A stretch of 44,825 bases of DNA, taken from the sequence record NC_073087.1; one strand, given 5' to 3'. Position 1 is the first letter of the stretch. Each line of letters starts with the position of its first letter. The DNA is from Escherichia phage Gluttony_ev152. A program made the translations under genes and the position numbers. The notes under the pieces are model-generated. The model worked only from the letters and a program-made list of their open reading frames with translations, was not told the origin of the DNA and searched no databases. This document shows positions 3,232 to 42,111 of the stretch, in pieces.

Positions 3232-3938
3232 TTTAAATTTTCCTCATTGACCGCTATCGCGAAGCCGCGCGGGGTGAGCGACCGGATTAATTTTGTGCGT
3301 GCTGATTTGCCTCCGAGGCGACTATACTGCTTCGAGTACCCTTTTTCAACGAAAACAGGTTTCTTCTCTGGCATACGGAAGCCGTTGCCGGTCCATAAGC
3401 AGGTCAGCTTCGGATATGAATCGCGGGCGTTGATGTATTCCGGGAAGAGCGGGTGTACGTCATCCTCCGGCAGATATCCCCCATACTCCCACGGGTCGAA
3501 TGAGTGATCCGGCTTGCGCCACTGGGTGGAAAGCACACTGCGCGGATTCTCAATCATATATGGCACTTCGAAGAAGTCACCCAGGTAAGCGGCGATCTTC
3601 GCGGTGCGCACCGCCTTAAGCTGAAAGGCTGGGTCTTTAGCTCGCTTGCGCGGGAAAGCGGGCGCACCGCTCACTGCCAGATCCGTGCACGGAGGAAACG
3701 CATAGATGATATCTGGCGTACCGAAATCGCCATTCATCGCACGGTCTACAAAGTCCAGATCGATAAACTCATTGCGATACCGGATTCCGCGACCATAAAT
3801 CCGGTAGTCAAGGTAAGACCCGTGGTCGGCTTCGGAGTAGTTGAAGCAATAACACTTATGCCCCATCTCGGCAGCACGCTCAATCATCAAGCCGCTGCCG
3901 TCAAACAATGACCAGATTGTCATTTTAGCAATAGTCAT
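3228..3938 (-). CDS. putative DNA methyltransferase (C5-cytosine-like)
   Basis: LFDGSG (SAM-binding FxGxG-like) and FPPCTDLAVSG (PC catalytic-type motif) plus ENPR; 236 aa is short for a canonical C5-MTase, so the assignment is tentative. Confidence 0.5.
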   Translation of the reverse strand: MTIAKMTIWSLFDGSGLMIERAAEMGHKCYCFNYSEADHGSYLDYRIYGRGIRYRNEFIDLDFVDRAMNGDFGTPDIIYAFPPCTDLAVSGAPAFPRKRAKDPAFQLKAVRTAKIAAYLGDFFEVPYMIENPRSVLSTQWRKPDHSFDPWEYGGYLPEDDVHPLFPEYINARDSYPKLTCLWTGNGFRMPEKKPVFVEKGYSKQYSRLGGKSARTKLIRSLTPRGFAIAVNEENLK

Positions 3939-16852: not shown

Positions 16853-16989
16853 GTGCGGCTATCCGTGATATGCTGATGCACAACCGCTTTGAGATCGGCG
16901 GTCGGGTGTTTCGTAACTACTTCGTGGCGCGTGCCTGGGCGCGCCATATTGGCAAACCAGAGGGGGCAATACGATGCTACACGATTTGA
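16849..16989 (+). CDS. small hypothetical protein (46 aa)
   Basis: ATG overlapping stop of upstream gene (ATGA); not in track (below 60 aa); begins MSAAIRDMLMHNRF. Confidence 0.3.
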   Translation: MSAAIRDMLMHNRFEIGGRVFRNYFVARAWARHIGKPEGAIRCYTI

Positions 16990-17261
16990 TATATTGGTTT
17001 GGATTGGGGTGCGCGACACTCTTTGCTACGGTGCTGGCGCTGTTGGTATGGGTATTCCTGATTTGGCCCGCCGTAGAAGCTGCCAGCATTACCCGGATGA
17101 CGTTCCAGATATACAAGCGCCGGGGCATCACGGAGCACCCTACCAGGTTGCGCATGTGGTGGCTATGGTATCGGGATATGATAGGGGGCAGGATGTTCGA
17201 GGCCGTCCGATCGGAAGGGTGGGAGTGGAAAGGCGTCGGCAAGTGGTCAATTTTCGATTAA
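16974..17261 (+). CDS. small membrane protein
   Basis: 95 aa with long hydrophobic N-terminal helix LGCATLFATVLALLVWVFLIW. Confidence 0.45.
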   Translation: MLHDLIYWFGLGCATLFATVLALLVWVFLIWPAVEAASITRMTFQIYKRRGITEHPTRLRMWWLWYRDMIGGRMFEAVRSEGWEWKGVGKWSIFD

Positions 17262-17312
17262 TTATGCAAGCGTGATATAGTCCCAGTGAGATAAACTTAC
17301 TGGGACTTTTTT

Positions 17313-17603
17313 ATGGATAAGCTAAACGAGTGGTTATTCGCCCTCGCATGTCTGGCTGGCGGCTTCGTAGGCGCACGCATTCACGGCGAGGCTACGAAGG
17401 GGCCATTAAACTTCGTTTTATATATCGTGGTAGGCTTTCTGTGTGCCATATTTGGTGCGCCAGCTATTGCCGAGTGGGCTGGCTTATCTGGCGAGCGCAC
17501 TGTCGCCGGTTTGGGCTTCGTAACTGCAATCTTCTGGATGCCAATCGCCGACCGGATCAGGGAGACTATTGCGTCGTTCCGACTTCCGGGGGGTGCAAAA
17601 TGA
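17313..17603 (+). CDS. putative holin (multi-TM membrane protein)
   Basis: 96 aa with about 3 hydrophobic helices, immediately upstream of the endolysin. Confidence 0.5.
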   Translation: MDKLNEWLFALACLAGGFVGARIHGEATKGPLNFVLYIVVGFLCAIFGAPAIAEWAGLSGERTVAGLGFVTAIFWMPIADRIRETIASFRLPGGAK

Positions 17604-17845
17604 TTATCTCCGTCCTGTTGTTTGTTATCATAGGGGCTTCGTCCCTGTTTAACGTGTATGCGCCGTCCGTACAGGATGGCATTTTAGGCCGGGTGCTGTA
17701 TCTGTTAACGGCAATGGTCTGTATTATCGGATTGTTGCAAACAGGAGACGTATCTGACACCACCTGGACCGCGTTAATCTGGCTGTTTGCATTGCGCACG
17801 CTGCGTAATGCTGTTTTGAATGGGGTAAAACATGCGATTCAGTGA
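17600..17845 (+). CDS. putative holin/antiholin-like membrane protein
   Basis: In-frame ATG at 17600 (ATGA overlap with upstream gene) within track ORF 17330..17845; 81 aa with about 3 hydrophobic helices; overlaps endolysin start. Confidence 0.45.
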   Translation: MIISVLLFVIIGASSLFNVYAPSVQDGILGRVLYLLTAMVCIIGLLQTGDVSDTTWTALIWLFALRTLRNAVLNGVKHAIQ

Positions 17846-18323
17846 CAACGGTCTACGATTTACGGCAGCATGGGAGACGTTTAGCCCGGTGCCGTATTTC
17901 GCGACTAAGAAAGAGCAGGCCCGCGGCCTGTACACCTGGGGTTATGGTCACACTGGCACTAACCCGCCTCGAAGCATTACCCGCGAGGAAGCGCTGGAAC
18001 TGCTCAAGCGCGATGTGGCGTATGCGGAGGATTGGGTGAACAAATACGCACATCCGAGCATTAACCAGGCGCAATTCGACGCGCTGGTGGATCTGGTAAT
18101 CAACGCCGGTCCGGGTCCGATCGTACCGGATGACGTCTCGAACGACTTTGATGATGCGGTGCGACTGGGAGACTGGGAGAAGGTCCGTGCTATTCTGCCG
18201 CAGTTCCGCAAGCAAGGCGGGTCGGTGCTCTTAGGTCTGGTCCGTCGCGCAATTGGCAGACAGGCGTTGTTTGATGGTAAGCAGTGGGACGTTGCCGAGC
18301 GAATCGGGCGTAACGCAGCATAA
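17832..18323 (+). CDS. endolysin, phage lysozyme (GH24-like)
   Basis: AAWETFSPVPYF ... GLYTWGYGHTG matches the E-x8-D/T ... GYGHT core of T4/lambda-type lysozymes; no SAR-type hydrophobic N-terminus. Confidence 0.8.
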   Translation: MRFSDNGLRFTAAWETFSPVPYFATKKEQARGLYTWGYGHTGTNPPRSITREEALELLKRDVAYAEDWVNKYAHPSINQAQFDALVDLVINAGPGPIVPDDVSNDFDDAVRLGDWEKVRAILPQFRKQGGSVLLGLVRRAIGRQALFDGKQWDVAERIGRNAA

Positions 18324-18339
18324 TACGAGGTAACACAGT

Positions 18340-18750
18340 ATGTTAAAAAGCATTCTTGATCATAACGCTGACGCGCTCGCCGCGCTGGCTAAAACCGAAG
18401 ACCCTGGCGCACGCGCTATCATCGCGGACACTATCAGCCACGCCGGGGTCTTCGATGCGAAGCTGCCTAGCGTGCCGGAAAGTAAGCCGGTGGCAAGTGC
18501 GACCATAACCATCACCCCAGTGTCAGCCGCAGTCGGTGCGAAGGCCGCCGCGTCTGTTGCCGTCCTGCCATCCGACGCAACTAACAAGGCGGGGAAGTGG
18601 GTGTCCGCAAACCCGGAATGCGCGGCAATCAATCAGGCTACCGGCGAAATCACAGCAAAATCGGAGGGTGGTGTCCACATCTTTTGGGTGGCATCCGATG
18701 GTAGCGGGGCGATGGCGTCCGCCATCTTCACCGTAACGGAAGCAGGATAA
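18340..18750 (+). CDS. bacterial Ig-like (Big_2-type) domain protein
   Basis: C-terminal VLPSDATNKAGKWVSANPECAAINQATGEITAKSEGGVHIFWVASDG resembles Big_2 fold signature; followed by intrinsic terminator. Confidence 0.55.
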   Translation: MLKSILDHNADALAALAKTEDPGARAIIADTISHAGVFDAKLPSVPESKPVASATITITPVSAAVGAKAAASVAVLPSDATNKAGKWVSANPECAAINQATGEITAKSEGGVHIFWVASDGSGAMASAIFTVTEAG

Positions 18751-18759
18751 TAAAACCAC

Positions 18760-18786
18760 AAGCCCGGTTAATTCCGGGCTTTTTAT
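18760..18786 (+). terminator. intrinsic terminator
   Basis: GCCCGGTTAATTCCGGGC hairpin followed by TTTTTAT after Ig-like gene. Confidence 0.65.
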
Positions 18787-18849
18787 TGCTTGACTTGCAA
18801 CCAACTATCAGACCATACTGCGACCAACCAACGAGAGGAGTAGTAAACT

Positions 18850-18930
18850 ATGGCACGTAATGATATTTGGGTATTGGCAATCTGGTCAGCCGCCGCATTT
18901 ATCGGTATGGTTATTTGCGAATTGCTATAA
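18850..18930 (+). CDS. small hydrophobic peptide (26 aa)
   Basis: Strong RBS GAGAGGAG 8 nt upstream of ATG; MARNDIWVLAIWSAAAFIGMVICELL; not in track. Confidence 0.3.
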   Translation: MARNDIWVLAIWSAAAFIGMVICELL

Positions 18931-18991
18931 CCAGCCGCAGTAGGGACCGTGGTATATTGTCCTCGGACCAATAACCAGGAAGTTAATTAAT

Positions 18992-20134
18992 ATGCACCCG
19001 CAAACTAAAATCACCGACGAGCAATTGATCGACGAGTTGCAATCCGGCACTACCGCGAAAGAGATTGCGAAGAAGTACGGAATTGCTCTTCGAAACGTCT
19101 ACATGCGCAAAGCCCGCCTATCGAAGAAAGGGATTGGTCACGGCAACGATGACGTAATCCGTAAGCGCGTTGCCGATGGCTTTGGGGTTAAGCGCGTATC
19201 GGCCCTGGTGCGCGGTAATGGCGAAGAGGTCATGTCGTGGGTCATCACTGAGCAGGACAAGGAGCGCCAACTCGAAGCTATGCGCGCTGTTGTCGAGGGT
19301 ATGAACAGCGAAATCACACCGGCAGCGCCAGTAAACGCCCCGCCAGTACCGATCCAGGCGCTAGACTTGCTCAACTTGTACACCGTGTCCGACTTCCACC
19401 TGGGCATGTTGGCCTGGGGCGAGGAGACTGGCGAGGATTGGGATATGGCGATTGCCGAAGACCTGTTCTACCGCTGGTTTGTCGAAGCCTTCGCACGCGC
19501 ACCGGACGCAGGCACTGCCGTAATTAATATCCTCGGTGATATGGCGCATTTTGATAGCCTTGATGCCGTCACACCGGCAAGTGGTCACGTACTGGACGCG
19601 GATACCCGCTACCAGAAGCTGGTCCGCTACATGATTCGCATGGTGCGCAACGTGGTGGAACTGGCGCTGCAAAAACACCACAAAGTCAAACTGCTAATCG
19701 TCCAGGGGAATCATGACGAGTCTGGCATGATTTGGCTGGCTGAAATGTTCAATACGCTGTACGAGAACGAGCCGCGCGTCGATGTGGATACATCCCCGGA
19801 CGTATACAAAATGGTGCAGCACGGCAAGACAACGCTGTTCTTCCACCACGGGCACAAAGCGCGATTCGATGTTATCGAGCAGGTTATGATCGCTAAATTC
19901 AGACAGGCGTTCGGGTCGAGCGAATACAGCTACGCGCACGTAGGCCATTTGCACCACCAGAAGATTGTTGAATCCCGCAACATGATTGTTGAACAGCACA
20001 GGACGCTCGCAGCGAAAGACGCCTACGCCAGTCGTGGTGGTTGGATGTCCGGTCGCAGCGCCAACGTCATTACCTACAGCGCCAACTACGGCGAAGTAGC
20101 GCGCTTAACCATTAGCCCGGAAATGTTGAAGTAA
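18992..20134 (+). CDS. HTH domain fused to calcineurin-like metallophosphoesterase
   Basis: N-terminal TAKEIAKKYGIALRNVYMRK HTH-like segment; phosphoesterase motifs SDFHLG, GDMAHFD, GNHDE, HHGH, GHLHH in canonical order. Confidence 0.7.
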   Translation: MHPQTKITDEQLIDELQSGTTAKEIAKKYGIALRNVYMRKARLSKKGIGHGNDDVIRKRVADGFGVKRVSALVRGNGEEVMSWVITEQDKERQLEAMRAVVEGMNSEITPAAPVNAPPVPIQALDLLNLYTVSDFHLGMLAWGEETGEDWDMAIAEDLFYRWFVEAFARAPDAGTAVINILGDMAHFDSLDAVTPASGHVLDADTRYQKLVRYMIRMVRNVVELALQKHHKVKLLIVQGNHDESGMIWLAEMFNTLYENEPRVDVDTSPDVYKMVQHGKTTLFFHHGHKARFDVIEQVMIAKFRQAFGSSEYSYAHVGHLHHQKIVESRNMIVEQHRTLAAKDAYASRGGWMSGRSANVITYSANYGEVARLTISPEMLK

Positions 20135-23733: not shown

Positions 23734-24820
23734 TCAAGATATGGCGGATCGAATGATTCGCCGTCACATCTTCACCCAGCGCCTGAGCAATGACCAGGCG
23801 CGAAGGGTGCTGGCTATGTGGGAGAAGTTCCGGCCCGCTTTACTGGGTAAGCTGACCGAGTTACTTGATGGTAAAAAGTCCATGAGCAACAAGGCACTTA
23901 CCACACTTTTAACGCAACTCGACAAGACCGTCAAAACGGAACTGCGCACCGAGTTTAAGGCGCTGGCTGAAAGCCTTCAGGAGTTCGCCGACACCGAGGC
24001 TGATTATCTCGCCGACACATTAACGGCAGCGATCCAGCCAGCGGTCGCCGTACCAGCGGTTGAGGTGGTGAGCGTAGTGACGGGCGCGCAGATTGCAGCG
24101 ACGGCAATGAAAAACCCGTTCCAGGGGAACACCATGATGCAATGGCCTGATTCACTTTCCGAGTGGACCAGGACGCAGATCGGCAATCAGGTGCGCGCCG
24201 GATTCATCCAGGGCAAGCCAACGATGGAAATTATTGCGGACGTGAGGCGCGCGCTAGGCGGTCGTAGTGCGCAAGCAATCTCAAGCGTTGTTAAGTCCGC
24301 GGTCAACCACTATGCGGCGACCGCCCGCGAATTAATGGTAAAAGCTAATGACGATATTCTCGAAGGTCGCCAATGGTTGGCCACATTGGACACGCACACT
24401 TCTCCCATGTGCCAGCTACGCGACCGCCTGTTCTATCCGGTTGATGTTACTCCCGCGACAAAAGGGAAGCGCGGCGGGAAAGTGGTGGCTGGATCACAAT
24501 ATGGCGCTGGTCCTGGCAAGCTGCATTATTGCTGCCGTTCTACGGAGACGTGGAAAGTCAAAGGCATGGAAGATTGGCCCAGTGGTAAGCGTCCGGCACT
24601 GAAGGCTGACGCAGGCAGATTGCTGAGTGAGCAGGTCGACGCGCAGACTGATTTCTTCTCATGGGTGCAGCGCCAGCCGCGCCATATCCTGGAAGAATTA
24701 TATGGAGTGCAACGCGCCGACCAGATTATGCGCGGCATGAAAGTGCCGAAGATGTTCACCGATTCTGGCGAACTGATGACTATTGCACAGCTTAAAAACC
24801 GGGGGTTATGGCGTGATTAA
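23717..24820 (+). CDS. head morphogenesis protein (SPP1 gp7 / Mu F-like)
   Basis: 367 aa directly after portal, overlapping it; typical position and size of minor capsid/head morphogenesis protein. Confidence 0.7.
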   Translation: MAKTINQDMADRMIRRHIFTQRLSNDQARRVLAMWEKFRPALLGKLTELLDGKKSMSNKALTTLLTQLDKTVKTELRTEFKALAESLQEFADTEADYLADTLTAAIQPAVAVPAVEVVSVVTGAQIAATAMKNPFQGNTMMQWPDSLSEWTRTQIGNQVRAGFIQGKPTMEIIADVRRALGGRSAQAISSVVKSAVNHYAATARELMVKANDDILEGRQWLATLDTHTSPMCQLRDRLFYPVDVTPATKGKRGGKVVAGSQYGAGPGKLHYCCRSTETWKVKGMEDWPSGKRPALKADAGRLLSEQVDAQTDFFSWVQRQPRHILEELYGVQRADQIMRGMKVPKMFTDSGELMTIAQLKNRGLWRD

Positions 24821-25142
24821 ATATGCAGCGATTGGACTGGTTATCGGTCTGGCGGTAGGATTCTGGCTAGGTGACTCCTATCGCGCTGGCGTAGTGGCGG
24901 AGGCGGCGCAAGAAGCGCAAGCCCAAGCCCAACGGCAGCAAACTAAAGTAATCGAGCGCTCCGTGCAGGCAGAACAAGCCCGCGACGTGGAATACCGGAC
25001 TATCACAAAAGAGGTTGTTAAATATGTTACGCGCCCTAACCGCCCTGATTGTAGTTTTGACGCTGAGCGCGTGCGGATCAAGCAGCGTGCCGTTGATGCC
25101 GCTAACGGAGTCGGCACTGCGACCGCCGTGCAAGTTCGATAA
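24783..25142 (+). CDS. i-spanin (Rz-like)
   Basis: N-terminal TM helix AAIGLVIGLAVGFWL followed by QA-rich coiled-coil; completely contains the o-spanin ORF in another frame. Alternative start GTG 24813 with GGGGG RBS. Confidence 0.6.
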   Translation: MHSLKTGGYGVIKYAAIGLVIGLAVGFWLGDSYRAGVVAEAAQEAQAQAQRQQTKVIERSVQAEQARDVEYRTITKEVVKYVTRPNRPDCSFDAERVRIKQRAVDAANGVGTATAVQVR

Positions 25143-25254
25143 CCCGTCTGCGGACCCCGACGAAGATTTGATGATTGACGTGAAAAATATGGAATGCGGG
25201 GCGAAGCTGAGGGCGCAGGTGTTGGAGTTGCAGCAAATAATTAAGGGGCCGTAA
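25015..25254 (+). CDS. o-spanin (Rz1-like outer-membrane lipoprotein)
   Basis: Signal peptide with lipobox LTLSAC, Pro-rich mature part; embedded in +1 frame of i-spanin gene; AGAGG RBS. Confidence 0.6.
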   Translation: MLNMLRALTALIVVLTLSACGSSSVPLMPLTESALRPPCKFDNPSADPDEDLMIDVKNMECGAKLRAQVLELQQIIKGP

Positions 25255-25268: not shown

Positions 25269-26033
25269 TTAGCGAGGAATGCCGCAAATCTCGTTGAGTG
25301 TTTTCACATCCAGCGCCACCGCCGTGGATTTTGGCTTGTCCGGGTAAGGGATGAATTGCTCAACTTCAGGCCATGCCTTGATCAGCTTCTTATCGGTATT
25401 GTGCATATCCAGCACGCCGGTAACAGTTAGTTTGAACGCGTCATACTTAGCTCGCAACTCGCGTCGGGCCTTGTCGTTACGGTCCAGGCGCTTGCAGAAA
25501 TCATGATCCGCCGGAAAATCAGCACGGCAGCGGGGCTTATAGATCGGCAGCGCTTTCCCATCCTCGTCCAATTCGCACACAGAAGCCAGCATAACTTCTT
25601 CGTACCCAGGCACAATATCGCCGAGATCGGGAGACAGCTTATTCATGTATTTATATTCCCAGTATCCGCGATGTACGCGGTATCGGAGACCGTCACCGCT
25701 CAAGGACAAGGTGCGAACATTTCCTCCTGCGTTGATTTCGAAAGTGGCGTCGTAAACTCGGTCGATACCTTTTGGGCGGTCGTGGTTATAGTAATACGTC
25801 GCCTTGTTGGTGTAGACGCTTACGCCGTACATCTGCGACTTGTCGTCGTGGATTAACTGTATATGCTCGCGTAGCGCGGCGAACGTGCGAATGCCTTTTG
25901 GCATACAGTCCATCGTAATTGCGTACGCCAGGTCGCGAGAGTCCATCATGATGGATTTGGCTTCGGTCGCGATTTCGTGGTCGCGCAGGATGTTAGCCAG
26001 AATCTGGTTTTTAATGTCTTTCGTCAGTCTCAT
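25269..26033 (-). CDS. hypothetical protein, reverse-oriented moron candidate
   Basis: 254-aa product from internal ATG with GAGGA RBS; own minus-strand promoter TTGCAA-N18-TATATT (26056-26085); lies between rightward spanin terminator and rightward scaffold gene. Confidence 0.55.
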   Translation of the reverse strand: MRLTKDIKNQILANILRDHEIATEAKSIMMDSRDLAYAITMDCMPKGIRTFAALREHIQLIHDDKSQMYGVSVYTNKATYYYNHDRPKGIDRVYDATFEINAGGNVRTLSLSGDGLRYRVHRGYWEYKYMNKLSPDLGDIVPGYEEVMLASVCELDEDGKALPIYKPRCRADFPADHDFCKRLDRNDKARRELRAKYDAFKLTVTGVLDMHNTDKKLIKAWPEVEQFIPYPDKPKSTAVALDVKTLNEICGIPR

Positions 26034-26055
26034 TTGTGTGTCCTCATGGTTGGTG

Positions 26056-26085
26056 TGCAACCAATATAGTGCAACCAATATGCGG
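26056..26085 (-). promoter_or_regulatory. promoter candidate for reverse-oriented ORF, TTGCAA-N18-TATATT
   Basis: Minus-strand hexamers with TTGGTTGCAC abutting -10 and repeated after it; drives ORF 25269..26033. Confidence 0.55.
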
Positions 26086-30179: not shown

Positions 30180-30905
30180 ATGGGTTATCAACTTCCCAAC
30201 GGGTCCAGCGTCCAGATCGGGTCCGTATTAGGCAGCGGCATCGCGGTTACGGCAGCTACCAACGCCGCCGCGTCGATCTCCGACCTTACGCAAGGTTGCG
30301 TAATTACCTGCGCGGCTTCGCATGGTCTGGTTGTTGGCGACGTTGTTATGTTCACTAAAACCCCGTGGGTCCGAGCGCTTAACCGCGCGTTCATCGTGGG
30401 TAAAGTGGATACTAACGACGTGACGCTGGCGCGCTTCGATACTCAAGACGTCACAAAATACCCTACCGGCGCTTTCGGCGTAGGCACGCCGGGCGAAGTG
30501 GTGAAGGTGTCGAGCTTTATCGACTTCCCGTTTATCACTAACGTTGCCGTGTCTGGTGGCGACCAGCAGACCACCACCTTCCAGCCGTTGCAGGTGAATA
30601 CCGCGATCAGTCTGAACACCACGAAAAACCCGTTGGTACAGACTTACACCTTCACCCACGACGAAGAAGACCCGATCCGCCCAATCCTGGAAGACCTGGA
30701 CGACACACAGAAAACCACTGTGATTAAGTTCACTAACCCAGCGGCAGCAAGCGGCAAAGGTGAGATTCGTATTTACCCAGCTAAGGTATCTTTCCAGAAG
30801 ATTCCGTCCGCTGAAGTAAACAACGTGGAAACGGTACAATCCACTCTGACCATGCAGTCTGATATGGTTATCTACCGTAAGGATCTGGTCGAGGCATTGT
30901 CTTGA
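30180..30905 (+). CDS. major tail (tube) protein
   Basis: 241 aa between tail terminator and G/GT chaperone; followed by strong terminator; gene order as lambda V. Confidence 0.7.
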   Translation: MGYQLPNGSSVQIGSVLGSGIAVTAATNAAASISDLTQGCVITCAASHGLVVGDVVMFTKTPWVRALNRAFIVGKVDTNDVTLARFDTQDVTKYPTGAFGVGTPGEVVKVSSFIDFPFITNVAVSGGDQQTTTFQPLQVNTAISLNTTKNPLVQTYTFTHDEEDPIRPILEDLDDTQKTTVIKFTNPAAASGKGEIRIYPAKVSFQKIPSAEVNNVETVQSTLTMQSDMVIYRKDLVEALS

Positions 30906-40899: not shown

Positions 40900-40924
40900 A
40901 TGGGGCCAGATGGCCCCATTTTCA
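40900..40924 (+). terminator. putative terminator between convergent genes
   Basis: GGGGCCAGATGGCCCC followed by ATTTTC; lies between J (+) and minus-strand ORF end. Confidence 0.45.
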
Positions 40925-41887
40925 ATACATATTCGGGATGACGAGTAGCGGTGTTGGTACTGCAATATTTTTACTTGGCATCTGGAATTGCTGCCGTGAG
41001 TAGTTGCCGATGACGCGGTTTTTAGCGACGCGCACATTATTACCCGCCATGCGTATGCCGTTCATGCGGACGTGGTTATAGCCACCGTTGTTCTGAATCA
41101 GTGCGCCGGTGTATGAAAGCTGGATCAGGCTGTTTCCAATATTCTGGTCGCCCGTTCCGATGTTAATAGTGCGGTCATATACGAACGGCTTGTTCACCGT
41201 CGAGAACGTAACCTGATTCTGGTTATTCGTCATGGTGATTCCGGCCCCCGGAGTGGGTGGTGTGTTGTTGAATATCACCAAATCCATGTCCACCGAAGCC
41301 GCCACATCGTCGATGCCTCCATAGGACGCGTTGCGGACGATAATACTGCCGCCATCGAAGCCTACTGATACGTTGCCATCATCCCATCGGGCGAACGGAA
41401 CACCGCCAACCGGCAAGGCCATACTACCGTTGACGCGCACGCGCTGTGCGTATCGGCAGGTCATTAGCTTAGACACGTTGGATATGGCGGTGAAGTCCGT
41501 CGAGTTAGCCACCAGTAAACCTGCGTTGCGCGAACCAACCGGCAGCACTTCCATTATGACGCCCGCCCATTGTGGTAAACCAGAGTACGCGCCATACGCA
41601 TCCTCCCCGCGCAGGGTGATACCACTATTACCGTTGCGAGTAACCGACGTAACGTAAAACGGGTCGGGAATTACCAGGGTCTGGTCAAACACCTCAATCA
41701 CTTCTACCGGGCGAGTGAGCGCGACGATGACCTGCGACCCATCCGTAAGCGGGGTGTTAATGGTTAGCGTCTTGTTGGACTGTGCCCGCTGGTTAAAGCT
41801 GGTGCAGTATGACGGCGCGCGGAGTCCCGCGGTTATCTCCATGCGCGGCCTTCCGTCGTTATAGTCGATAAGTATTCCAGCGCCCAT
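40922..41887 (-). CDS. hypothetical Asn/Gly/Thr-rich protein (beta-helix-like)
   Basis: Reverse-oriented; starts right after the lipoprotein gene stop (ATG 41887 with GGGAG RBS, alternative GTG 41896); repeated N/G/T-rich segments; no signal peptide. Confidence 0.5.
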   Translation of the reverse strand: MGAGILIDYNDGRPRMEITAGLRAPSYCTSFNQRAQSNKTLTINTPLTDGSQVIVALTRPVEVIEVFDQTLVIPDPFYVTSVTRNGNSGITLRGEDAYGAYSGLPQWAGVIMEVLPVGSRNAGLLVANSTDFTAISNVSKLMTCRYAQRVRVNGSMALPVGGVPFARWDDGNVSVGFDGGSIIVRNASYGGIDDVAASVDMDLVIFNNTPPTPGAGITMTNNQNQVTFSTVNKPFVYDRTINIGTGDQNIGNSLIQLSYTGALIQNNGGYNHVRMNGIRMAGNNVRVAKNRVIGNYSRQQFQMPSKNIAVPTPLLVIPNMY

Positions 41888-41889
41888 TA

Positions 41890-42111
41890 TTACCACTCCC
41901 GTGATTTAACTGATACTGTGCCTGAGAAATTGCCGTCGCTATCTGAAGACAGCCCAGTGAATCGCATGTCTACATCTCCTGCCGGTACTTTTTGCCCGTC
42001 AACGTAGCGCAACATGCAGCTACCGTAAGCAACCGTAACGCAATCGCCATTGTTGCGTTCTACGGCGCAACCGGACAAAAGAACCGCACAAATCATAATT
42101 AAAGTTTTCAT
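41890..42111 (-). CDS. small outer-membrane lipoprotein (Cor/Llp-like superinfection-exclusion candidate)
   Basis: 73 aa from internal ATG with AGGGGA RBS; signal peptide MKTLIMICAVLLSGC with lipobox LSGC; reverse-oriented between J and tail fiber genes. Confidence 0.55.
   Translation of the reverse strand: MKTLIMICAVLLSGCAVERNNGDCVTVAYGSCMLRYVDGQKVPAGDVDMRFTGLSSDSDGNFSGTVSVKSREW

Follow-up and report, generated by a model that had tools for sequence, protein, structure and literature searches.

A Probable Capsid Decoration Protein Encoded in the Lysis Unit of Escherichia Phage Gluttony_ev152

What is a protein with an immunoglobulin (Ig)-like domain doing among the lysis genes of a small coliphage? 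The question is raised by Escherichia phage Gluttony_ev152 (NC_073087.1), which we analysed as a single window of 44,825 nucleotides (nt), the whole stretch to which all positions refer. At 17313-18750 four tightly packed genes lie between two strong intrinsic terminators (17279-17307 and 18760-18781) and therefore form one bracketed unit. They encode two holin-like membrane proteins, here called hol1 and hol2, an endolysin, and a protein of 136 amino acids (aa) with an Ig-like domain; an open reading frame (ORF) for a 26-aa hydrophobic peptide, pep26, follows just downstream. A preliminary description, made from the letters of the sequence, had placed the Ig-like gene in the same unit as the lysis genes and ahead of a terminator, as the downstream hairpin confirms, and had considered an Ig-like protein atypical there. 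We propose that 17313-18750 is a late lysis unit and that its fourth gene in all probability encodes the capsid decoration protein of the genus, not a lysis factor.

The fourth gene and the capsid

Identification of the Ig-like protein begins with its N-terminus. Over residues 1-49 it is identical at 47 positions (E 8e-23, PDB sequence search) to chain H of PDB entry 9zys, a 55-aa protein present as two chains and named 'Decoration protein gp64'. The same entry holds seven chains of a 366-aa 'Major capsid protein gp09', which matches the capsid protein of Gluttony_ev152 at E 2e-232, and 'Tail protein gp15' of entries 10lj, 10xw and 23gd matches its tail tube protein at E 2e-154. The numbers gp09, gp15 and gp64 correspond to bas18_0009 (capsid), bas18_0015 (major tail) and bas18_0064 of the BASEL phage Oekolampad (Bas18), in which bas18_0064 is a 55-aa gene directly after the endolysin gene bas18_0063 and has the same GIFD variant as the PDB chain. 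In Gluttony_ev152 the N-terminal module is encoded once, at the same post-endolysin position, and its homology to the gp64-type family extends to a profile match of residues 1-48 to PHROG 11068 (55 profile positions, E 2e-32). The two proteins are thus orthologous over the helical anchor and differ in what follows it: gp64 ends in a Pro/Glu tail, whereas in the 136-aa protein the tail runs into a Big_2 domain.

Our reading of 9zys is based on the depositors' molecule names, chain counts and sequences. It suggests that the N-terminal hairpin is a capsid-bound decoration protein, modelled as such by the depositors, and that the 136-aa Ig protein would also bind the capsid. If the seven capsid and two gp64 chains represent one icosahedral asymmetric unit, a T=7 head would carry about 120 copies of gp64. 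The possibility that the Ig-like protein is a decoration protein, which the preliminary description had put forward for checking, has become the best-supported answer through the 9zys match and the gp09/gp64 numbering. Its characterization as an odd lysis component is no longer tenable, with the anchor 96% identical to a gp64 that is modelled on a Dhillonvirus capsid in 9zys.

The remainder of the protein is an Ig-like domain. Residues 51-124 score 42.2 bits against Pfam Big_2 (PF02368; cutoff 22.8), above the gathering threshold, and the Big_2-like assignment, which was to be abandoned if profiles failed to support it, therefore stands. An AlphaFold model places an Ig beta-sandwich at residues 53-133, with a per-residue confidence (pLDDT) of about 95, and a two-helix hairpin at residues 2-34 (pLDDT 56-68). 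Foldseek searches with the Ig domain returned, at probability 1.0, T5 pb6, the lambda gpV Ig domains and a Big_2-CBM56 protein, and the C-terminal Big_2 of a 255-aa 'Decoration protein gp29' (PDB 9kmh) aligns with it as well; the nearest structures (T5 pb6, lambda gpV and 9kmh gp29) are virion-exposed Ig domains, and the phage's own tail tube protein has none. Outside the genus, the closest sequence (43% identical) is found at the C-terminus of a Warwickvirus tinuso head-module protein of 337 aa, whose gene comes just before the capsid gene. When the anchor was searched as a profile against 1.84 billion representatives, no named family was recovered; the hits were limited to short relatives of 47-60 aa, to fusions with Ig and to spurious matches in low-complexity sequence.

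T4 Hoc and T5 pb10 are Ig-bearing head decoration proteins, non-essential and variable, in which a capsid-binding module carries one or more outward-facing Ig-like domains. The 255-aa protein deposited as 'Decoration protein gp29' in 9kmh and as 'BIG2 domain-containing protein' in 9kzj has the same capsid module plus Ig architecture, and the tail tube of that phage is homologous to the one studied here. Unlike these proteins, the fourth gene product is anchored by a helical hairpin of about 45 aa that has no detectable similarity to their anchors, and its gene resides in a lysis unit rather than a head module. Most likely, Gluttony_ev152 displays its Ig domain on the capsid in the manner of Hoc and pb10. 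The decoration protein would bind heads through the hairpin and hold Big_2 out on the Pro-rich spacer, and by analogy with Hoc the displayed domain would presumably mediate weak adhesion to glycans. Proteomic data from the Dhillonvirus EE09 are supportive of, and no more than consistent with, an abundant late structural protein: its 137-aa orthologue (CDS40) was present in pelleted virions (three peptides, 28% coverage), and in infected cells at 25 min no more than four phage proteins were detectable, this one among them (PMC10673088).

Comparison across the genus indicates which part of the protein is its functional core. In 18 relatives the fourth gene encodes either 53-55 aa (the hairpin and a PSPPPPEEPGPAA-type tail) or 133-137 aa (the hairpin and Big_2), and the two forms part ways at the Pro-rich linker. 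At least three Ig alleles occur among these relatives, and HK578-type phages have a second hairpin allele; Gluttony_ev152 combines a 'type A' Ig allele with the common anchor allele. A tblastn search located the common hairpin allele in 145 phage records, all Dhillonvirus-type (one labelled with an Acinetobacter host, one with Salmonella), and only about 38 of them, roughly a quarter, include the Ig domain; the rest have the anchor and Pro-rich tail only. More distant hairpin proteins (P0042, P0048, P0053 and P0055; 27-50% identical) are also short and, where their context is known, are encoded directly after a 163-aa endolysin of glycoside hydrolase family 24 (GH24), with two small genes at the holin positions before it.

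Ratios of nonsynonymous to synonymous change (pN/pS) were calculated from substitutions across 12-15 relatives. For the N-terminal module and the 26-aa ORF the two alternative frames were examined as well, and the ratios there were above 1. In-frame ratios are 0.08 for the endolysin, 0.10 for the N-terminal module and 0.27 for the Ig domain; those of hol1, hol2 and pep26 are in Table 1. With pN/pS of 0.04-0.27 in relatives, all five ORFs are under purifying selection and are therefore not chance ORFs. In phages that lack the Ig domain the hairpin has a pN/pS of 0.04, as constrained as the endolysin, and the anchor must therefore have a function of its own. We regard the hairpin as the functional core and the Ig domain as an optional add-on.

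Several observations weigh against a decoration role. Our literature search found no paper describing 9zys or a Dhillonvirus capsid structure. The known structure is that of the 55-aa orthologue, and capsid binding by the long form would follow from the identity of the anchors. Endolysin, terminase and phosphoesterase were present as well in the virion pellet of EE09 (PMC10673088), and detection alone is no proof of virion association. Anchor allele type does not covary with any structural protein: in 16 IMG/VR Dhillonvirus genomes, identities for 21 proteins of packaging, head and tail are 85-100% whatever the anchor allele and whether or not Ig is present, an overall invariance that leaves little signal; the exceptions are two distant outliers and the Nmad5 gene, which is missing in some genomes. 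The major capsid protein is itself 96-100% identical across Ig-plus and Ig-minus Dhillonviruses. In addition, the order hol1-hol2-endolysin-anchor, with gaps of 10-16 nt, is kept even where the anchor is only about 30% identical, which would fit a lysis-linked role too, and the function of the presumed holins in the unit is itself predicted from sequence.

A lysis-linked role could take the form of an accessory factor, a trans-acting endolysin partner that binds the cell wall or envelope and is released through the holin lesion. The gene certainly lies in the holin/endolysin unit, 16 nt after the endolysin stop, in an order conserved in distant relatives; the orthologous anchor, however, is modelled with the capsid in 9zys, under the name of a decoration protein. 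A carbohydrate-binding Big_2-CBM56 module is among the Foldseek neighbours of the Ig domain, yet three quarters of the genus lack that domain while the anchor remains under strong selection. The EE09 orthologue was detected together with the endolysin, but in HK578 the anchor has been swapped (35% identical) beside holins and an endolysin that are 96-99% identical, which argues against a co-evolving partner of the endolysin. The protein also lacks a signal sequence and a transmembrane domain (TMD), and no evidence of a decoration protein taking part in lysis was found in this analysis. A comparable proposal has been made in the Drexlerviridae for a stand-alone SH3 protein beside a T1-like lysis cassette, where a lysis role is proposed only (PMC13164509). 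That protein is likewise a small single-domain binding protein near the lysis genes of related small coliphages and present in only some genomes; it differs in fold and in lying on the other side of the cassette, and it is the anchor studied here that has structural evidence of a capsid role. We therefore consider an accessory lysis function very unlikely.

Database records describe the fourth gene as 'major tail protein' (BEK2-2, SECphi18, ZCEC10 and HK1), 'putative lysozyme' (StarDew gp60), 'lysozyme downstream ORF' (Sponge), 'structural protein with Ig domain' (HK578 and SSL-2009a) or 'hypothetical protein'. The first of these names, to which PHROG major-tail-protein families matching residues 44-134 and Foldseek matches to tail tube Ig domains (T5 pb6 and lambda gpV, the best in the PDB) might lend credence, is scarcely believable, as the matches are limited to a promiscuous add-on domain and do not extend to a tail-tube fold, the real tail tube protein is encoded at 30180-30905 (Pfam Phage_tail_3; near-identical to 'Tail protein gp15', E 2e-154), and the anchor has been modelled with the capsid protein, which already contradicts a place in the tail.

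Table 1. Positions of the features discussed in the text, with the evidence for each
Feature	Positions	Strand	Basis
Extended -10-like motif CGTGATATAGT (TG-n-TATAGT), candidate lysis-unit promoter	17271..17281	+	Sequence; directly 5' of, and overlapping, the hairpin
Intrinsic terminator hairpin, 12 bp stem, then T6 run reaching the hol1 ATG	17279..17307	+	Free energy (dG) -22.6 kcal/mol, z -8.0
hol1, 96-aa holin-like protein	17313..17603	+	PHROG 2359 'holin', E 1e-31; 3 TMDs by hydropathy; pN/pS 0.06
hol2, 81-aa holin-like protein	17600..17845	+	PHROG 2508 'holin', E 7e-27; hydropathy; pN/pS 0.13
Soluble GH24 (T4-lysozyme-type) endolysin, 163 aa	17832..18323	+	Pfam PF00959; PHROG 7 endolysin
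Ig-like protein, 136 aa	18340..18750	+	Pfam Big_2; starts 16 nt past endolysin stop
N-terminal module (residues 1-45), two-helix hairpin (H2-18, H22-34)	18340..18474	+	9zys chain H match; PHROG 11068; AlphaFold model
Pro-rich linker (residues 46-52, ...PSVPESKPV...)	18475..18495	+	Disordered in model
Big_2 Ig-like domain (residues 53-133), C-terminus and stop	18496..18750	+	Pfam PF02368; model
Intrinsic terminator, 8-bp GC-rich stem and T run, closing the four-gene unit	18760..18781	+	dG -15 kcal/mol, z -3.9
Sigma-70-like promoter candidate TTGACT-18-CATACT, 5' of the 26-aa ORF	18790..18819	+	9/12 match
Shine-Dalgarno sequence GAGAGGAG, 9 nt upstream of the pep26 ATG	18833..18840	+	Sequence
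pep26, 26-aa single-pass membrane peptide MARNDIWVLAIWSAAAFIGMVICELL	18850..18930	+	pN/pS 0.15; hydropathy
Second extended -10-like motif CGTGGTATATT	18948..18958	+	Upstream of phosphoesterase/exonuclease gene (18992-20134) and packaging operon
i-spanin (Rz-like), N-terminal TMD and coiled coil	24813..25142	+	PHROG 2536 Rz-like spanin, E 3e-36; hydropathy
o-spanin (Rz1-like) lipoprotein, 76 aa, lipobox LSAC	25024..25254	+	Lipobox scan; PHROG 5672 and 1267 Rz-like spanin, E 3e-26

Holin-like proteins, endolysin and distant spanins

Replication, lysis, packaging, head and tail modules are all present in the 44.8-kb stretch, permuted relative to HK578, and from this content we take it to be a whole genome, that of a complete Dhillonvirus. 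The 1.75-kb lysis region has 151 matches among phage records at 80-95% nucleotide identity, nearly all of them Escherichia/Shigella Dhillonvirus (HK578-like small siphoviruses) and the top one SD276 at 92.9%; against Dhillonvirus genomes the cassette is 90-93% identical. Gene content and order are the same, at 86-93% nucleotide identity and with nothing essential different, in gp55-58 of HK578, orf61-65 of SSL-2009a and the 'holin-like class I/II' genes of EP23, and the lysis part is already annotated in many Dhillonvirus genomes.

That the cassette encodes two holin-like membrane proteins is borne out by the PHROG 'holin' matches and by hydropathy. For hol1, TMDs are predicted at residues 6-23, 29-56 and 63-79, followed by a basic C-terminal tail DRIRETIASFRLPGGAK of net charge +2; three TMDs, a charged tail and a location two genes upstream of the endolysin are the features of class I holin topology, and hol1 is best described as a class I-like, holin-like protein. 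Its orthologue is annotated as a holin in HK578, GeorgBuechner and Oekolampad. In hol2 two TMDs are clear (residues 1-21 and 27-49), a further helix (55-68) is only weakly hydrophobic and the C-terminus is basic, so that the expected pair of roughly three-TMD proteins holds for hol1 and is doubtful for hol2, whose third segment is weak. The hol2 frame shares 4 nt (ATGA) with hol1 at one end and 14 nt with the endolysin at the other. Searches of Pfam and NCBIfam with the holin-like proteins and with the 95-aa membrane protein encoded upstream of them returned no family.

The endolysin is better defined. It scores 71.1 bits against Phage_lysozyme (PF00959; cutoff 22.3, E 1e-19) over residues 14-139, and its closest solved structure is 8hp8, 'Endolysin mtEC340M' (E 1e-30), in which the Glu of AAFE aligns with E15 in the AAWE of Gluttony_ev152 and identifies it as the catalytic Glu; for the second acidic residue, E28 is a tentative candidate. 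No hydrophobic segment is present at the N-terminus (maximum 15-residue Kyte-Doolittle mean of 0.46 over the first 61 residues), and the enzyme therefore has neither a signal-anchor-release (SAR) nor a signal sequence. The earlier view of a soluble GH24 endolysin with no SAR signal is upheld by this value and by a Pfam score above the cutoff. Pinholins (S21-like, in the two-TMD class II) work with SAR endolysins; because the endolysin here is not of the SAR type, a pinholin alone would not suffice.

We suggest that hol1, with hol2 as co-holin or antiholin, would permeabilise the inner membrane, producing lesions large enough for a folded 18-kDa enzyme. The division of labour between the two may well be different: hol2 could be the true holin and hol1 the antiholin, or the reverse, or the two could form an obligate two-component holin as opposed to a holin with a dispensable partner, and we would give these arrangements together somewhat less than an even chance. 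The genes hol1 and hol2 are always paired, even in relatives at 23-56% identity (L021 and L025), the lower limit being 23-27% in L021. Both are under purifying selection, and the ATGA overlap of their frames is of the kind usually seen with translational coupling. A dual-start motif, through which a holin gene could also encode its own antiholin, is absent from each: hol1 begins MDKLNEW and hol2 MIISVLL, with one Met each. On the other hand, the evidence for either role consists of PHROG 'holin' labels, with no match to a Pfam or NCBIfam holin family, and nothing discriminates between the roles. Under any of these arrangements a cytoplasmic, signal-less GH24 muramidase would be released through the holin lesions to degrade the murein, and one late transcript would yield two membrane proteins, a muramidase and a decoration protein.

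In many phages the slot after the endolysin gene is occupied by spanins. Here an overlapping i-spanin and o-spanin pair is encoded 6.5 kb from the holin and endolysin genes, between a head-morphogenesis gene and a minus-strand Nmad5 gene (24813-25254), and the usual spanin site consequently holds something else. The two spanin genes share the 3' end of the i-spanin gene, each in its own frame; the i-spanin start is uncertain and may be GTG 24813, by analogy with HK578 gp05, or TTG 24783, which gives the longest ORF. Spanin orthologues are annotated in HK578, SSL-2009a and Oekolampad (RefSeq, BASEL), and Kongari et al. 2018 assigned HK578, SSL-2009a, JL1, EP23 and SO-1 to the overlapped 'Jersey' spanin family (PMC6139136). 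The Rz/Rz1-type pair at ~24.8-25.25 kb would disrupt the outer membrane as the third step of lysis, and its presence rules out a spanin-less phage in which the Ig protein or pep26 serves as a spanin substitute. The Ig protein, with neither a TMD by hydropathy nor a lipobox, does not have the features of a spanin. The lysis cassette itself is incomplete, but no lysis function is missing from the genome.

The resemblance to lambda S-R-Rz/Rz1 lies in a holin-dependent soluble endolysin and a two-component spanin. Unlike lambda, Gluttony_ev152 has two separate holin-like genes with no dual-start motif, its spanins are unlinked, and a structural gene fills the slot after the endolysin.

Two other loci in the genome can be mentioned. 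An Nmad5 (nucleotide modification associated domain 5) gene lies on the minus strand at 25269-26078, within the plus-strand head module (Pfam PF18757, E 2e-57); some relatives, HK578 among them, lack it. Between the central tail fibre and side fibre genes, 40922-42111 on the minus strand contains a 324-aa ORF followed by a 73-aa lipoprotein (lipobox LSGC; PHROG 4281), in a position that matches a pair annotated in HK578 as an Rtp44-like receptor-binding protein and an Rtp45-like superinfection-exclusion lipoprotein, discussed for LptD-targeting phages.

Control signals and the 26-aa peptide

The terminator in front of hol1 is the stronger of the two, with none of 200 shuffles folding as well, and a compensatory C/G insertion preserves its stem in one relative (L019). 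The extended -10-like motif that overlaps it is kept in all close relatives and is a candidate promoter of the lysis unit. Within 17271-17312 this motif, TGATATAGT, adjoins the terminator hairpin on its 5' side, an arrangement that is conserved, and the only Shine-Dalgarno (SD)-like sequence of hol1, GGGA, sits within the 3' arm of the hairpin. Transcription starting about 7 nt past the -10 motif would produce RNA that begins inside the 5' arm and is therefore unable to form the hairpin. RNA reading through from upstream of hol1 would be terminated, or would have the hol1 SD sequestered. It may be that 17271-17312 functions as a promoter-within-terminator insulator of the lysis unit.

The 95-aa product of the gene just upstream, 16974-17261 (+), is hydrophobic over a long N-terminal segment (residues 5-39), is rich in Trp and Arg in its C-terminal half, and matches PHROG 2531 (unknown function) at E 3e-37. 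In a distant relative (L018) its homologue lies past the lysis genes and ahead of the small terminase gene.

The terminator that closes the unit is conserved in relatives with stem-preserving changes and is annotated as a terminator in PTXU06. Beyond it, the -10-like motif of 17271-17281 recurs as a second exact copy of CGTGRTATAKT at 18948-18958, which in relatives lacking pep26 comes directly after the terminator. CGTGRTATAKT was rejected as a genome-wide promoter, there being only two exact copies and a total count not above chance.

Between these signals lies pep26, which has a short polar N-terminus and then a single hydrophobic stretch of transmembrane length by hydropathy. The preliminary description of a 26-aa hydrophobic ORF with a strong ribosome-binding site was accurate, with GAGAGGAG located 9 nt from the ATG. 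No match to it was found in PHROG, Pfam or the PDB. By tblastn it is present in 109 phage records, all Dhillonvirus-type and about 70% of the genus, in most of which it is unannotated at the match; SSL-2009a lists it as orf65, with 29 aa. The substitution pattern, biased towards synonymous sites in frame (0.15) and away from them in the other frames (1.3 and 3.1), leads us to accept pep26 as a real gene.

It is unlikely, in our view, that the ORF is instead a by-product of conservation in a control element of the packaging operon that follows, be it a promoter, a leader or an RNA element. Such an element would account for its location between a promoter-like site and a second promoter-like motif, for its absence from about 30% of the genus, and for its lack of both a database family and, in most records, an annotation; it would not account for substitutions that are mainly synonymous. 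Nor would it explain how the frame is maintained when the flanks are not: the ATG is kept in all twelve aligned relatives and the frame continues through codon 24 in all but SO-1, and the ORF persists where the upstream region (L011 and L013) or the 3' end (L009, L010 and L012) has been replaced. The SD is kept in most of the twelve and is degenerate in L011 and L013. The amino acid replacements observed are compatible with a transmembrane segment (S/T/A/V/I).

As a real gene, pep26 does not appear to belong to the lysis cassette in which it had been included: it is set apart by the terminator and by a promoter-like site, and is inserted or deleted independently in relatives. The sigma-70-like candidate in front of it is conserved in relatives that carry the ORF, and both are missing from L008, L015 and L017; this joint loss is the behaviour of an optional, moron-like module. 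We accordingly regard pep26 as a probable moron-like element, with its own promoter-like site, between the unit terminator and the next operon, and not as a demonstrable lysis gene. On the opposite strand, a weak sigma-70-like site (18860-18889, CTGACC-18-TATCAT, 9/12) lies inside the ORF and, if real, would direct antisense RNA across its start region.

The interval between the decoration and exonuclease genes is a hotspot for small insertions (L009, L010 = SSL-2009a, L011, L013 and L050 = Oekolampad), with additional ORFs either between the terminator and pep26 or between pep26 and the exonuclease gene, such as SSL-2009a orf66 (57 aa). In L021, whose endolysin is 56% identical, a 48-aa ORF with two transmembrane segments (3777-3923, +; MSDIWLYAL...IVELLK) has ends that weakly resemble the two ends of pep26 (pairwise E 0.005 and 0.02), and it may be a longer homologue.

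Implications for the genus

The lysis gene cluster of Gluttony_ev152 is ordinary for an HK578-like Escherichia coli phage, and our understanding of lysis is unchanged by these findings. The element that seemed atypical is largely explained, with structural backing, and the apparent oddity of an Ig protein 'in' a lysis cassette is removed. Public annotations of the Ig-like gene stand corrected, and a conserved micro-ORF overlooked by gene callers is now flagged.

There is a slim chance that more is involved. Placement of the decoration gene in the lysis unit could itself be functional, with a pool of free anchor, or its titration by maturing capsids, feeding back on the holins or endolysin and coupling lysis timing to head maturation; alternatively, pep26 could be a new small effector that, for example, modulates a holin, excludes superinfecting phages or acts like a toxin. 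If true, either would be a novel function for a small protein, in a coliphage genus that has been well sampled.

What is modestly new is a natural Ig-plus/Ig-minus polymorphism on a 45-aa capsid anchor, together with the conserved and usually unannotated micro-ORF. Within one genus a tiny anchor occurs with or without a displayed Ig domain. This series of presence and absence in nature provides a test bed for the function of phage-displayed Ig domains, and the anchor, at about 45 aa, suggests itself as a compact display scaffold.

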